From Candidatus Microgenomates bacterium (lineage in GTDB: Bacteria > Patescibacteriota > Microgenomatia > UBA8517 > JACQJR01): DNA of 64,000 nt. Numbering within the stretch: position 1 is the first letter of the stretch; the number at the start of each line of letters is the position of its first letter. Below the pieces are notes generated by a model. The model saw nothing but the letters and a program-made list of their open reading frames with translations. It ran no database searches and was not told where the DNA came from. The DNA lies in assembly GCA_016204995.1 (NCBI GenBank), contig JACQJR010000001.1:539034-603033 (forward strand), read 5' to 3'. Shown here in pieces: positions 3,786-41,289 of this stretch. Position numbers and translations under genes: made by a program.

Positions 3786-3881
3786 AATTCTATATCTACG
3801 AAGGGAATAGACATAACAGACGAAACAGCTAACTGGAAAACATATACAAATCATGGTGTTAGTTTTAAGTATCCTGTTGAT

Positions 3882-4190
3882 TTGGAGGTGTTAAGTGATA
3901 ATGAAAATAAAATCGAATTAAGTAATCCAATATGGAATATAGTTATTCTTTCAGTGCTGTTTACTGAAAATCAATCAACTCTAAGTACCGCTCAAATTCA
4001 AACCAGTTTTATTTTAGATAAAATACCAGCTATTCGATTCAATACTTCGAAAGATAATCGTTTTTATCGTGCTACTATTAAAACTACAGAAAAACCTTTT
4101 ATAGAAATCCAATATTATGTAGATATTACAAATCCTCAACCAGAATTTATTTTTGACAAAATCCTCTCCACTTTTAAATTTACCCAATAG
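3882..4190 (+). CDS. hypothetical protein (C-terminal STFKFTQ)
   Basis: 102 aa; shares only its last 23 nt with ORF 2282-2815. Confidence 0.3.
   Translation: MEVLSDNENKIELSNPIWNIVILSVLFTENQSTLSTAQIQTSFILDKIPAIRFNTSKDNRFYRATIKTTEKPFIEIQYYVDITNPQPEFIFDKILSTFKFTQ
4167..4189. repeat. 23-bp direct repeat copy 2 (tccacttttaaatttacccaata)
   Basis: identical to 2792-2814. Confidence 0.7.
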
Positions 4191-27995: not shown

Positions 27996-28090
27996 CAGAT
28001 AATCAGTGATCAGAAAACTCAGAAAGCCAGAAAATCTGAATGTCTGAATTTCTGATACTCCGGTATTCCGAGTTTTCCGGTTATCTGAAT
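27996..28090. repeat. imperfect inverted-repeat element of the 'cagaa/ttctg' family
   Basis: cagataatcagtgatcagaaaactcagaaagccagaaaatctgaa...ccgagttttccggttatctgaat; terminal cagataa/ttatctg inverted. Confidence 0.7.
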
Positions 28091-28136: not shown

Positions 28137-28212
28137 GGGTGCGTAGCTCAGCGGTTAGAGCGCCACTCTTATAAAGTGGATGTCCTTGGTTCAAATCCAA
28201 GCGCACCCACCA
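28137..28212 (+). tRNA. tRNA with anticodon UAU (reads AUA; tRNA-Ile2-like), CCA encoded
   Basis: manual fold: acceptor gggtgcg/cgcaccc, D-arm gctc-agcggtta-gagc, anticodon stem ccact/agtgg with loop cttataa, T-arm cttgg-ttcaaat-ccaag, discriminator A, cca. Confidence 0.65.
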
Positions 28213-32056: not shown

Positions 32057-32196
32057 CTTATGTTGCGGGGCCAGGAGTCGCGCCTGGCCTGGAAGATTAT
32101 GAGCCTTCCGTGCAACTCTACACTACCCCGCATGTACCTGAACATTATACCCTTTGAACTTTACAGAGTCAACATTTTTAGTTATAATTTGTAAGG

Positions 32197-36894: not shown

Positions 36895-37971
36895 GTGTCT
36901 TCGCCGTACGCATGCTACAATTACTTCGTGAGTGATAAAAAACGACTGGTCTTAATTGATGGCAATGCCATTCTTCATCGGGCCTACCATGCTTTGCCGC
37001 CTTTAACTTCTCGGTCCGGCCAATTGGTGAATGCCGTCTATGGTTTTTGTGCGATGCTATTTAAAGTGGTAAATGACCTGCAGCCTGATTTTTTGGCTGT
37101 CACTTTTGATACACCTAAACCGACTTTTCGCCATGCCGCTTATGTTGGTTATCAAGCTCACCGGCCGCGGATGGAATCTGACCTATCAGATCAAATTGAA
37201 CTGGTGCATGAAGTAGTGCGGGCGGCTGATATTCCGATTTATGAAGAGCCGGGTTATGAGGCAGATGATGTAATTGGGACGCTTGCCATGCAAGCTGTTT
37301 CGGAGAATCAGGCTACTCAGAAAACTCAGAAAACTCAGAAAACCAGAAAGCCAGAAAGCCAGAAAGCCAGAATTTCTGATATTCAGAATCTCCGGTCCTC
37401 TGAGTCTTCCGAGTTTTCTGGTCCTCTGGAAGTAATCATAGTTTCCGGTGATCGGGATTTACTGCAATTAGTCAATGACCGTGTCAAGGTTTATATGCCG
37501 ATTAAAGGCGTTACCGAAGCTAAGTTATTTGGGACTGCCGAAGTAGAAGAAAGAATGGGGGTTAAACCCTCACAAATTGTGGACTTAAAAGCTTTGATGG
37601 GCGATGCTTCTGATAATTATCCTGGCATTCCTGGCATTGGCCCTAAAACTGCTGCTATCTTAATTGGCAAATTTGGCACCTTAGAAAATATTTTTAGCCA
37701 GCTTGATAAAATTGATGATAAGACCGTGGCAAAACTGGCGGCGGGACATGAGAGTGGAGTGCTGTCTAAAAAATTAGCCCGAATTGAAATTAATGCTCCC
37801 GTCACTTTAGATTTAGAAAAAGTCCGGTTGACTCCCCTAGTTGGTAATAAAAACTTAATTGAGAAACTAGCAGAATTTGGTTTTAAAAGTTTAACGGCCC
37901 GGGCCCGGGGGATAGTTAAGAAAGAAGACGATCAATCCCGATTAAATCGGGACCAGTTGAAGTTGATATAA
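36895..37971 (+). CDS. 5'-3' exonuclease (Pol I N-terminal/FEN-like domain protein)
   Basis: LVLIDGNAILHRAYHALPP and acidic metal-binding motifs; contains a ~40-aa low-complexity insertion encoded by repeat 37311-37430. Confidence 0.8.
   Translation: MSSPYACYNYFVSDKKRLVLIDGNAILHRAYHALPPLTSRSGQLVNAVYGFCAMLFKVVNDLQPDFLAVTFDTPKPTFRHAAYVGYQAHRPRMESDLSDQIELVHEVVRAADIPIYEEPGYEADDVIGTLAMQAVSENQATQKTQKTQKTRKPESQKARISDIQNLRSSESSEFSGPLEVIIVSGDRDLLQLVNDRVKVYMPIKGVTEAKLFGTAEVEERMGVKPSQIVDLKALMGDASDNYPGIPGIGPKTAAILIGKFGTLENIFSQLDKIDDKTVAKLAAGHESGVLSKKLARIEINAPVTLDLEKVRLTPLVGNKNLIEKLAEFGFKSLTARARGIVKKEDDQSRLNRDQLKLI
37311..37430. repeat. ~120-bp 'cagaa/ttctg'-family repeat element embedded in-frame in the exonuclease CDS
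   Basis: ctcagaaaa x3, ccagaaag x3, then tctgatattcagaatctccggtcctctgagtcttccgagttttctgg; encodes QATQKTQKTQKTRKPESQKARISDIQNLRSSESSEFSGPLE. Confidence 0.75.
37936..37952. repeat. palindrome tcccgattaaatcggga (CCGATTNAATCGG family) inside the exonuclease 3' end
   Basis: read directly; encodes SRLNRD. Confidence 0.75.
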
Positions 37972-39193: not shown

Positions 39194-40147
39194 ATGCCGG
39201 AGCTTCCAGAAGTAGAAACTATCCGCGGCGGACTTGAGAAGAAAATTGTTGGGTTGACGATTAAAAAGGTTGATATTTGTGCTCCTAAAAGCTTCATCGG
39301 CAAAGCGCAGGAAGTCCAAGGCAAGAAAGTAATTAAGGTATGGCGCAGAGCCAAAATGTTGGGAATAGATCTAACGACGGGTCCTGCCGGGGGCTCGTCC
39401 CGCCCGATGTCCTCGCTGAACGCTGCGGGCACTCGTCGGGACTCCCTCCGCCCCCGTCACCCGTCGCTTGCACTTTTGTTTCATCTGAAAATGACCGGGC
39501 AGCTGGTTTTGGATGATAGAAAGTGGAAAGTGGAAGGTGGAAGGATGGTTGGGGGACACCCCACTCCTGATATGCGGGATGCAATGCCTAATTCTCACAC
39601 GAGGGTAGTTTTTTCTTTTAGTGATGGATCCCGTCTTTATTTTAATGACCAAAGGCGTTTTGGGTGGGTGAAAGTAGTTCAGAGTTCGGAGTTAGGAGTT
39701 CAGGGTTTGTTTGAGAAATTAGGGCCGGAGCCGTTAGAAAAAGAATTTACTTGGCAGATTCTCAAGCAGAATTTATTAAAACATAAATCCACCCCGATTA
39801 AATCGGGGTTAATGGATCAACAAGTGGTGTCCGGAGTGGGGAATATTTACGCTAATGAAGCGTGTTTTAATGCTAGGATAGATCCTAGAGCTAGGAGCTT
39901 AGAGCTTAGTAACGCACAGTTTAAAAAATTGCATCAAGGTGTTGTTAAAGCCCTTCGCGACGGTATTAAACATGGTGGTTCAACCAGAGCTCATTTTGTA
40001 GACAGCGAAGGGCATCGGGGTTATTTTTTAGATTATGCCTATGTTTATGGCCGGGACGAGCATCCTTGTAAAATTTGCCAAACAGAAATTAAAAAAGTGA
40101 CTTTAGGCGGCCGCGGTACCTACTTTTGTCCCGCCTGCCAGCGCTAG
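39194..40147 (+). CDS. mutM: formamidopyrimidine-DNA glycosylase
   Basis: starts MPELPEVE (catalytic Pro2); C-terminal CKICQ...CPACQR zinc finger; carries at least three repeat-derived in-frame insertions; ORF-track start 39176. Confidence 0.85.
   Translation: MPELPEVETIRGGLEKKIVGLTIKKVDICAPKSFIGKAQEVQGKKVIKVWRRAKMLGIDLTTGPAGGSSRPMSSLNAAGTRRDSLRPRHPSLALLFHLKMTGQLVLDDRKWKVEGGRMVGGHPTPDMRDAMPNSHTRVVFSFSDGSRLYFNDQRRFGWVKVVQSSELGVQGLFEKLGPEPLEKEFTWQILKQNLLKHKSTPIKSGLMDQQVVSGVGNIYANEACFNARIDPRARSLELSNAQFKKLHQGVVKALRDGIKHGGSTRAHFVDSEGHRGYFLDYAYVYGRDEHPCKICQTEIKKVTLGGRGTYFCPACQR
39376..39465. repeat. ~90-bp GC-rich palindromic element in-frame inside fpg (termini gacgggt / acccgtc; internal gtcccg / cgggac)
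   Basis: base composition contrasts sharply with the flanking gene; encodes TTGPAGGSSRPMSSLNAAGTRRDSLRPRHPSLA; 90 bp is a multiple of 3. Confidence 0.6.
39791..39809. repeat. palindrome accccgattaaatcggggt (CCGATTNAATCGG family) inside fpg
   Basis: read directly; encodes TPIKSG. Confidence 0.8.
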
Positions 40148-40185: not shown

Positions 40186-41289
40186 ATGCTATTAAAAAAT
40201 ATCCATCTGCAAAATTTTCGCAGCTTTAATAAAGTTTCTTTTAATTTTTCTGCTACCACCACAGCTATTGTCGGTCCTAATACGGCTGGTAAAACTAATC
40301 TTCTAGAAGCAGTTTATTTATTGGCTACCGGTAAATCTTTTCGGGCCAGCCTGGAGGAAGAAATGATTCAAACTGGTACTGAATTTAGCAGGGTTAAGGG
40401 TGCGATAACCCTGCCTGCTGGCGCAGACAAGCCTGCGCAGGCAGGTAGTGAAACTTTAGAAGTAATTTTAACTCGCGGTGAAGTGGGGGGAGAAAGAGTC
40501 AACCGAAAGATGTTAAAGGTTAATAATTTAGGTAAAAGATTGGTGGATTATCAGGGGATTTTGCGGGTGGTGATTTTCGGCCCCTGGGATTTGGAATTAA
40601 TTATTGATTCACCCTCTGTCAGGCGTAAATTTTTAGACAGCGTCCTTTTGCAAGTAGACCGGGAGTATCGGAGATCAGTGATGGCCTATGAGAAGGGATT
40701 AAGATCCAGGAATAGACTCTTGGAAAGAATTAGAGAGGAAAATTTAAGCCGGTCGCAACTGCTGTTTTGGGATAAATTGCTGATCAAAAACGGCGATTAC
40801 ATCTCCCAAAAAAGGGAAGAGCTGATTGATTTTATTAATCAAACAAAACCTTTAAGTAACGAGCAATTCCAATTAATTTATGATAAAAGTGCTATTTCCG
40901 AGGGTAGACTGGCTCAATATAGCCAAGAAGAAGTGGCGGCGGCGACTACTTTAGTCGGTCCACACAGAGATAATATTATATTCCAAGTTCTAAATTCTAA
41001 GCTCCAAACTCTAAACTTAGAAGTTTATGGATCGCGCGGGGAACAGCGGATGTGCGCTTTATGGATCAAGCTAGCTGAACTGGCTTTTATTGAACAGGCC
41101 ACCGCCACACGTCCGGTCTTGCTGTTGGATGATATTTTTTCCGAGCTGGATCACGAGCATCGGGAAGTTGTGATGAATGTTGTAGGAGAGCAGCAAACAA
41201 TTCTGACTACCGCCGATCCGCATATGATTAGCGGCCTGCCTGCGCAGGCAGGTTTAAAAAATGGATTAGAGAAGATTGAATTGGGCTAG
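40186..41289 (+). CDS. recF: DNA replication and repair protein RecF
   Basis: N-terminal Walker A GPNTAGKTNLLEA; C-terminal ABC signature and LLLDDIFSELD Walker B; contains two copies of the palindrome cctgc(c)tgcgcaggcagg. Confidence 0.85.
   Translation: MLLKNIHLQNFRSFNKVSFNFSATTTAIVGPNTAGKTNLLEAVYLLATGKSFRASLEEEMIQTGTEFSRVKGAITLPAGADKPAQAGSETLEVILTRGEVGGERVNRKMLKVNNLGKRLVDYQGILRVVIFGPWDLELIIDSPSVRRKFLDSVLLQVDREYRRSVMAYEKGLRSRNRLLERIREENLSRSQLLFWDKLLIKNGDYISQKREELIDFINQTKPLSNEQFQLIYDKSAISEGRLAQYSQEEVAAATTLVGPHRDNIIFQVLNSKLQTLNLEVYGSRGEQRMCALWIKLAELAFIEQATATRPVLLLDDIFSELDHEHREVVMNVVGEQQTILTTADPHMISGLPAQAGLKNGLEKIELG

Follow-up and report, generated by a model that had tools for sequence, protein, structure and literature searches.

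A GC-rich hairpin inserted in frame in fpg of a Microgenomates bacterium belongs to a dispersed, probably mobile family of palindromic elements

The DNA analysed here, a 64,000-nucleotide (64-kb) stretch of contig JACQJR010000001.1 (assembly GCA_016204995.1) from Candidatus Microgenomates bacterium, referred to below as the window, carries a strongly GC-rich hairpin in its fpg (mutM) gene, inserted in frame between conserved motifs of the encoded Fpg protein. With a probability of about 0.78, this block is the resident copy of a small, non-autonomous palindromic element that is, or recently was, mobile, is mobilized in trans, and is tolerated by its host as a translated flexible loop. Pattern scans of genome and metagenome collections yielded about 45 members of the family on contigs of 35–48% GC. 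Of these, 36 are distinct, there are 42 different pairs of flanks, and most of the contigs are labelled as bacteria of the candidate phyla radiation (CPR; Patescibacteria). The copies from the pattern scans share the termini GGGTCCTGyC...GyCACCC, and the family recurs in similar contexts in separate assemblies from NCBI, ENA, JGI and Logan.

The window has an overall GC content of 41.4%, and a windowed scan (60-nt windows) placed its strongest and longest GC island at 39367–39480, with at least 68% GC throughout and a peak of 75%. A first-pass annotation of this DNA had pointed to a 90-bp GC-rich palindromic cassette in fpg; the block is real and palindromic, and the 90-nt window at 39380–39469 reaches 74.4% GC, but a length of exactly 90 did not hold, the element comprising a core of 86 nt, or 92 nt when an extra stem is counted (Table 1). 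The imperfect hairpin at the core has a GC content of 74–75%. Both inverted repeats described earlier are present, the internal pair gtcccg/cgggac as given and the terminal pair with an actual length of 8 bp. The block is predicted to fold into one long imperfect hairpin (−50.1 kcal/mol, z = −3.2), a stability equalled by one of 200 dinucleotide shuffles.

Apart from the insertion, the host gene is intact. The product of the open reading frame (ORF) at 39194–40147 matches MutM structures in the PDB (E of about 1e-47) and contains three Pfam domains, each above cut-off: PF01149 Fapy_DNA_glyco (90.9 bits), PF06831 H2TH (87.1 bits) and PF06827 zf-FPG_IleRS (29.6 bits). It keeps Pro2, Glu3, Lys54 (of the RRxK motif), the intercalating Met100 (HLxM) and the zinc-ligand residues C292, C295, C312 and C315, all in invariant alignment columns; the downstream zinc finger is thus preserved, as had been claimed, both as a domain and in its four cysteines.

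The insertion was delimited by comparison with the best 120 listed Fpg homologues, all of them CPR sequences and several named Daviesbacteria, in 114 of which the segment between RRAK and HLKM could be delimited. This spacing is 12–14 residues in 70 of the 114 close homologues, compared with 41 in the window protein. At the empty site an orthologue (locus L088; loci outside the window are designated L followed by a number) reads MLGIEVEEGMTLLF, where the window Fpg reads MLGIDL-TTGPAGGSSRPMSSLNAAGTRRDSLRPRHPSLA-LLF, a net gain of about 28 residues (84 nt). The ORF runs uninterrupted through the insert, and its flanks are colinear with those of the orthologues. In an AlphaFold2 model built on the homologue alignment, strands at residues 55–62 and 92–97 enclose a coil at 63–91, with a predicted local distance difference test (pLDDT) score below 50 at 65–88. 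According to this model the insert sits at a β-hairpin turn of the N-terminal domain as a disordered loop, in agreement with its earlier description as an in-frame insertion between conserved motifs. The strand geometry, considered without superposition on a DNA complex, would place this turn at the end of the β-hairpin far from the strand ends that carry Lys54 and Met100. Compatibility of the insertion site with the fold, as a surface loop, was checked for Fpg only. A length that is a multiple of three, brought forward earlier as a mark of a tolerated insertion, applies to the net gain of 84 nt, but is of little weight as evidence, because every frame of the block is free of stop codons on both strands.

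A related element occupies the same fpg site in a homologue from another metagenome (L001, 37% GC). It shares with the window copy the blocks CGGGTCCTG, CGATGTCCTC, TGCGGGCACTC and CACCCG, and the stem between them carries compensatory changes. A scan with an apical pattern of one genome per species of bacteria and archaea returned 18 loci, 11 of which also contain the flanking motifs GGGGTCCTGyC and GyCACCCC, not demanded by the pattern, and are true copies; the remaining seven are chance matches in GC-rich genomes. The true copies came from Daviesbacteria, Levyibacteriota, Saccharimonadales, an unclassified Patescibacteria genome and five 40% GC contigs titled 'uncultured Gammaproteobacteria'. 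The latter label, borne by loci from metagenome-assembled genomes (MAGs) with 40–42% GC (L004, L007, L011, L012 and L018), is treated with caution, because the proteins of L007 and L011 are 60–63% identical to those of CPR loci, and it may be wrong. A looser pattern applied to metagenome contigs returned 65 loci, about 35 of which are true members, all on contigs of 35–48% GC. Viral contigs gave only two matches, both by chance and in GC-rich contigs.

The 36 distinct copies align over their full length (element size 82–94 nt, about 85–100). From this alignment RNAalifold derives one hairpin with 27 pairs, and in 13 of these both sides have changed in a compensatory manner; the first core base pairs with the last (7–102), through GC in 27 copies, through CG in 7 and through AU in 1. 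A covariance model built from the same alignment recovers the window copy with 85 bits (E = 2.7e-19) over 39372–39469. Seven more copies were obtained without any DNA pattern, two with the covariance model in neighbouring DNA and five through YchF protein homology. Their 5′ end is GGGTCCTGyC except in L094, which reads GGGGCCTG, so that four of the five ychF copies keep it, and they also keep GyCACCC, a C-rich bulge and the covarying stems. Their cores are of two types, A (CGATGTCCTC...TGCGGGCACTCG) and B (GATGCTC...TGCGCGTC), the second being known from the pattern-free copies; one type A copy has a U-A to C-G change within the core. Because the pattern-free copies retain the ends but show two types of core, the ends are the most widely conserved feature, and the core is an irregular helix that differs among subfamilies.

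The proposal that the block represents a family of coding-tolerated palindromes of its own is thus borne out by its dispersal, conserved ends and covarying stems; the AT-rich CAGAAAAY palindromes of the window are of another, unrelated kind. A possible foreign origin, also suggested earlier, holds only in the sense in which any mobile DNA is foreign: the high GC content is no evidence of a transferred gene segment, because the family is GC-rich everywhere (60–78% in hosts of 35–48% GC).

About 30 copies lie within long ORFs of housekeeping genes, in both orientations, and about 14 in short intergenic gaps. Twenty host genes were examined by Pfam. They encode a class I tRNA synthetase (ValRS-like), UvrD, DNA polymerase I (twice), AP endonuclease 2 (Nfo), phosphoglycerate kinase, the carbamoyl-phosphate synthase large chain (CarB), GT1/GT4 glycosyltransferases (twice), a GT2 glycosyltransferase, Mur-type ligases (twice), a ClpB-like AAA protein, an ATP-dependent DNA ligase, YchF, RecG, peptide deformylase (Pdf), a 5′–3′ exonuclease and topoisomerase I (TopA); the host at L035 has no Pfam match. 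Among these copies no gene was seen to be broken and no intragenic copy to be out of frame, those in short ORFs filling gaps between genes.

Although at least 32 of the 36 copies lack stop codons in every one of the three frames, those in the same orientation as their host use only one of them: at 15 of 15 distinct host sites the frame is xGG GGT CCT G (Gly-Pro...), for which the probability under equal use of the three frames is roughly 1e-7. The resulting peptides resemble RGPVAPSSHPMSSVASSLRALDGTPSSRATPR. Most copies of the opposite orientation give the peptide RGG..GGPPSSARSE.RTS.GG..RQDPE. The frames used contain less Cys and fewer hydrophobic residues than those left unused. Since the apical loop varies in length, the frame in which the 3′ half is read changes from copy to copy, and what is conserved is therefore the nucleotide sequence rather than the peptide. 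Read from the DNA, the pattern of frames and stop codons is that predicted by translation combined with selection against disruptive peptides, and unlike that expected of splicing or ribosomal bypass; the intragenic copies are apparently translated as floppy surface loops.

Several comparisons point to movement. In one MAG polA and pgk contain identical 85-nt copies (L007 and L012), and one 91-nt subfamily is found at nine or more different sites, of which a single metagenome accounts for four. The closest relative of the window copy lies in recG in the opposite orientation (L050, 89.5% identity), while the copy at the orthologous fpg site (L001) is only 68% identical. At the ychF site the elements of L044 and L092 are 91% identical within flanking ychF DNA of 63–74% identity, and at one glycosyltransferase site the element is present in opposite orientations in two genomes. 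These identities, orientations and sites do not suit a single ancient insertion drifting with its host and fit repeated arrival; gene conversion from other copies fits as well, though less simply. As a separate observation, L062 joins at 1193–1289 the 5′ flank of the pgk copy (L012) to the 3′ flank of the polA copy (L007) across the identical 85-nt element, which reflects either a chimera that the repeat induced during assembly or a genuine recombination event between copies.

The flanks have the consensus ttGYTC|core|TCRC, in which positions −4/−3 covary with +3/+4; they are therefore probably part of the hairpin rather than a target duplication. Some copies extend the stem with other complementary flanks, namely CGAC/GTCG in the window, GAAAG/CTTTC in L044 and ACCG/CGGT in L028.

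On the other hand, a number of observations weigh against a mobile element as the explanation. No parent element was found in the low-GC loci examined (below 50% GC), neither a lone 5′ end followed by a distant 3′ end nor a transposase, and no constant target-site duplication could be derived from the flank logos. The core lengths of in-ORF copies fall into all three classes modulo 3 (0, 1 and 2), so that the frame would have to be restored by variable flanks or by later compensating indels. The window contains a single copy: further copies, for which the first-pass annotation had proposed to search the genome, were absent from the 64 kb both for an 18-mer with up to three mismatches and for the covariance model with filters off, the next-best match scoring only 11.6 bits. 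The search patterns themselves imposed CGATGTCC and GGGCAC, so that conservation at these motifs cannot be judged from pattern hits; the positions beside them (TC, TGC and TC) were free in the patterns and yet are nearly invariant, and GGGTCCTG at the 5′ end was not imposed by the first database pattern. Finally, the ychF-site hairpin is kept across hosts whose proteins are only 64–78% identical, and this conservation could mean selection for the structure in place, in a host function, rather than re-insertion. A closely related empty site was also sought, and two protein searches returned no orthologue closer than 73–78%.

The conservation of the ychF hairpin leads to the strongest of the rival explanations, namely that each copy is a cis-acting RNA or DNA structure selected for a function of the host at its site, such as translational pausing in aid of co-translational folding, mRNA stabilization or protein binding, and is not merely selfish. 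Stem covariation with double changes in 13 of 27 pairs, the high conservation of unpaired motifs and the persistence of the ychF hairpin and its ends in six orthologues, with a compensatory U-A to C-G change in L094, would all be accounted for in this way. Such a function is nevertheless unlikely, since the element lies in genes in both orientations, whose transcripts differ; its sites, in some 20 genes unrelated to each other and in gaps between genes, have no functional theme in common, and most orthologues of each host gene lack any insert. The higher identity of the elements than of their host genes fits recent arrival better than ancient selection, and the element has no match in Rfam.

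That the element is removed or bypassed rather than translated, as a mini-intron, a self-cleaving RNA or a bypassed segment like the 'byps' of Magnusiomyces mitochondria, is considerably less probable. With GC clusters and byps it shares a high GC content and a strong structure within an AT-rich genome (PMC8811140), and its conserved core has irregular helices. Removal or bypass would, however, free the reading frame and its stop codons, yet the host frame is kept, the frame in use is stop-free and the same one of three open frames is taken at every same-orientation site, and no out-of-frame intragenic copy was seen. The presence of both orientations in genes and the lack of any match to a ribozyme or intron family even at E ≤ 10 also speak against it.

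Equally improbable is a lineage-specific expansion of the loop selected for a new function of Fpg, with hairpin potential and GC richness as incidental features. The insert is in frame, surface-exposed and rich in Arg, Ser and Pro, and many Fpg homologues are expanded at the same turn; but the inserts of these homologues are mutually unrelated, one nucleotide sequence is shared by unrelated genes, in either orientation, and by the DNA between genes, and the differing frames of the 3′ half indicate that nucleotides rather than amino acids are conserved. An artefact of assembly or sequencing is the most improbable of all: the source is a MAG and contig L062 does resemble a chimera joined across identical copies, but the ORF is uninterrupted, its flanks are colinear with orthologues and the family recurs in independent assemblies.

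If the block is a mobile element tolerated in translation, its history could be as follows. The element would spread as DNA, by way of a hairpin folded from a single strand or extruded as a cruciform and recognized by its conserved ends by an enzyme acting in trans, which might be of the HUH/Y1 type, the DDE type or another. Selection would remove insertions that break the frame and those read as Cys-rich or hydrophobic peptides, and the survivors would be transcribed and translated with the host gene, giving in Fpg a tolerated disordered loop rich in Gly, Pro, Ser and Arg. The DNA of the expanded loop would then be a neutral landing pad, open to further elements and to deletions. No benefit to the host is required, and intergenic hairpins may incidentally serve as terminators or stabilizers.

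A more far-reaching version, put forward only tentatively, is that CPR genomes carry an active, structure-specific mobile hairpin system in which some enzyme reads the asymmetric ends (GGGTCCTG...CACCC). Homing of the elements, in either orientation, would recur at the same loops in essential proteins and displace older hairpins, with the frame policed by selection at the peptide level; the irregular core would perhaps have a catalytic or recognition role. Were this true, a measurable share of the lineage-specific protein insertions in CPR bacteria would be selfish DNA.

The same loops also receive other hairpins. Inserts are present at the fpg turn in 44 of the 114 homologues and fall into at least 12 unrelated peptide families; the five examined as DNA all form hairpins, most of them considerably more stable than shuffled controls. 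Unrelated hairpin families likewise occupy the ychF site and one loop of the 5′–3′ exonuclease in related genomes, the exonuclease loop holding a CAGAAAAY palindrome in the window, a GGGTCCTG-family element in L079 and a third kind of insert in L088. The sharing of loops by different families would follow if an expanded loop is a neutral landing pad; alternatively, the insertion machinery targets existing hairpins. Several further hairpin families probably share this in-gene lifestyle.

Among the fpg-turn inserts of other homologues (P0019, P0100, P0002, P0004, P0057 and others; loci L089 and L002), the peptides VPANAGIQ...LDSRLRGNDN, HSGAKRSEAIES...SLQDD and SLRD..AKQS..EIA..PRND were noted, which look like translations of GTCATT...AATGAC-type hairpin repeats. 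Such strings recur in hypothetical proteins of many phyla. Within the window fpg itself, a short run of GAAAGTG/GAAGGTG heptamers at 39519–39545 encodes KWKVEGG and marks a second length-variable site of Fpg, after QLIYDDGK, at which other homologues have different inserts. In L040 (3111–3240; also L048 and L059) the element in the ATP-dependent DNA ligase gene contains a second small hairpin (CACGCCTGTCAAGCAGGCG...), nested in frame in its 3′ arm, which is an example of an element inserted into an element.

Table 1. Coordinates of the fpg element, its host gene and other palindromic repeats (window positions unless a locus is named)
Feature	Position	Strand	Details
Host gene fpg/mutM	39194..40147	+	317 aa, ATG at 39194, stop included; intact except for the insertion
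Hairpin element core	39378..39463	+	86 nt, CGGGTCCTG...GTCACCCG; aligns end to end with 35 other distinct copies
Outermost stem, 5′ arm	39375..39382	+	cgacgggt; first three bases lie beyond the family core; CGA|CGGG junction same in closest relative L050
Outermost stem, 3′ arm	39459..39466	+	acccgtcg
5′ terminal motif	39379..39386	+	GGGTCCTG; invariant in 36/36 distinct copies
Core motif, 5′ side of irregular inner helix (type A core)	39405..39414	+	CGATGTCCTC; mostly imposed by the search patterns
Apical stem and loop, variable	39415..39423	+	family length range about 7 to 17 nt
Core motif, 3′ side of inner helix	39424..39434	+	TGCGGGCACTC
3′ terminal motif	39458..39463	+	CACCCG; CACCC invariant in the family, last base covaries with first core base
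Extra protein loop	39374..39466	+	codons of residues 61–91, TTGPAGGSSRPMSSLNAAGTRRDSLRPRHPS
CAGAAAAY palindrome	37318–37420		in ORF 36895–37971 (5′–3′ exonuclease); in frame, peptide QATQKTQKTQKTRKPESQKARISDIQNLRSSESSEFSGP
Further CAGAAAAY palindromes	1337–1448; 28013–28077		apparently intergenic, judged by coordinates only
recF palindrome, copy 1	40410–40445		18 extra central nt; corresponds to a 12-aa gap (TLPAGADKPAQA) versus L088 RecF
recF palindrome, copy 2	41235–41252		bare 18-nt palindrome, peptide LPAQAG
Family copy found by covariance model, L016	3707–3818
Family copy found by covariance model, L043	4235–4345

Two other kinds of palindrome were observed in the window. One is AT-rich and consists of CAGAAAAY heptamer runs and their complement; the other is a small GC-rich palindrome, CCTGCCTGC...GCAGGCAGG, with two in-frame copies in the recF ORF (40186–41289). 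In L001 recF is split (3800–3900), and an out-of-frame element was considered as the cause; no element lies at the break, only a stop or frameshift, and the split gene is either a pseudogene or a sequencing error. ARAGORN predicted a tRNA-Ile with anticodon TAT, an uncommon bacterial way of reading AUA, at 28137–28212, where Rfam confirmed a tRNA, and a tRNA-Met at 32062–32132 on the minus strand, which has no Rfam tRNA match at the gathering score.

Searches of the window and eight loci against Rfam gave only tRNAs at gathering thresholds, and two chance-level matches at E ≤ 10 over 39300–39550. An HDV-like (hepatitis delta virus) ribozyme, suggested by the strings UCCUCGC and GGGCA, was rejected: the element is a simple nested hairpin, no P1 pairing is possible and the Rfam HDV models do not match. 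Coupling of the base after CCTG with the base before CACCC reflects two subfamilies and their recombinants and not a structural pair. In 35 of 36 copies the better fold is that of the G-rich antisense strand, an asymmetry that is uninformative on RNA function because it is expected from composition alone.

Insertions in rRNA genes and unusual protein lengths are known traits of CPR bacteria, and hairpin repeats within essential genes offer a concrete source for part of the variation in protein length. The signature GGGTCCTGyC...GyCACCC could be used to mask inserts in alignments, phylogenies and structure predictions, and repeat-induced chimeric contigs are flagged in metagenome assemblies. 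Recurrent loops and strict choice of frame offer a quantitative approach to the question of how proteins accommodate added segments and perhaps recruit them; the interest would be greater if frame choice, loop reuse and asymmetric ends reflect an active, targeted system in CPR bacteria.

No description of such elements in CPR bacteria was found in the published literature, in searchable texts only, which is not proof of novelty. On the evidence of its sequences the family is a previously uncatalogued one of in-frame, apparently translated, palindromic selfish DNA, and the kind of element is one already known, as comparison with four groups of repeats illustrates. Bacterial MITEs (transposable elements of the miniature inverted-repeat type) such as Correia, ERIC, RU-1/2/3 and the Coxiella QMITEs (PMC10969869; PMC5896051; PMC2759123) are likewise non-autonomous, multi-copy and foldable, sometimes with an open frame and sometimes fused in frame to a host gene. 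In classical MITEs the terminal inverted repeats are clear and correspond to those of a parent insertion sequence (IS), and target duplications have a fixed length. Neither trait could be derived for the CPR element, to which the MITE label is therefore not yet applied. The ends of the element do pair (GGGGT/ACCCC, 5 bp; 8 bp in the window copy), yet the end motifs are asymmetric and the whole element is one hairpin.

Repetitive extragenic palindromes (REPs) are 20–40 bp long, have an unpaired terminal GTAG or CGTC tag, are often found as dimers and are thought to be mobilized as single-stranded hairpins by an IS200/IS605-type enzyme (RAYT; PMC3733652). REPs and BIMEs (bacterial interspersed mosaic elements) resemble the CPR element as dispersed bacterial GC-rich stem-loops that are occasionally intragenic and whose structure is kept by compensatory changes (PMC3733652). 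The CPR element is two to four times longer, forms a single compound hairpin and has the ends GGGTCCTG and CACCC; it is not a REP in the strict sense, being too long and without a terminal GTAG or CGTC tag, and CGTC occurs in it only internally and in one subfamily.

Yeast mitochondrial GC clusters, found in frame also in var1, and the Magnusiomyces byps, which are skipped by the ribosome, recall the CPR element in composition (PMC8811140). They too are GC-rich mobile palindromes in an AT-rich genome, mostly intergenic, some in frame, and capable of merging or nesting (PMC8811140). They differ in being organellar, in their length of about 30–50 bp and in AG/TAG terminal repeats taken as target duplications (PMC8811140). 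Whereas byps are skipped, the pattern of frames and stop codons in the CPR element argues for translation.

The Rickettsia palindromic elements RPE-1 to RPE-10, as summarized in later accounts (Ogata et al., 2000, via PMC10969869 and PMC3733652), are small palindromes that lie in frame in many housekeeping genes and encode a family-specific peptide, and in behaviour the CPR family represents the same phenomenon. Compared by description, both kinds are small palindromic repeats without a transposase of their own, in a reduced genome, placed between genes and in frame within unrelated housekeeping genes, with a consistent frame, a family-specific peptide and sites compatible with the fold of the host protein. 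As far as those accounts go, the differences are that the CPR element belongs to Patescibacteria and not to Alphaproteobacteria, measures about 85–100 bp against about 100–150 bp, is strongly GC-rich relative to its host, lies in genes in both orientations and has the asymmetric ends GGGTCCTG...CACCC. Judged from phylum, length and composition, homology between the two is unlikely. With the CPR family, the phenomenon of selfish DNA inside genes for proteins, most familiar from Rickettsia, would extend to a bacterial radiation that is both very large and very different.

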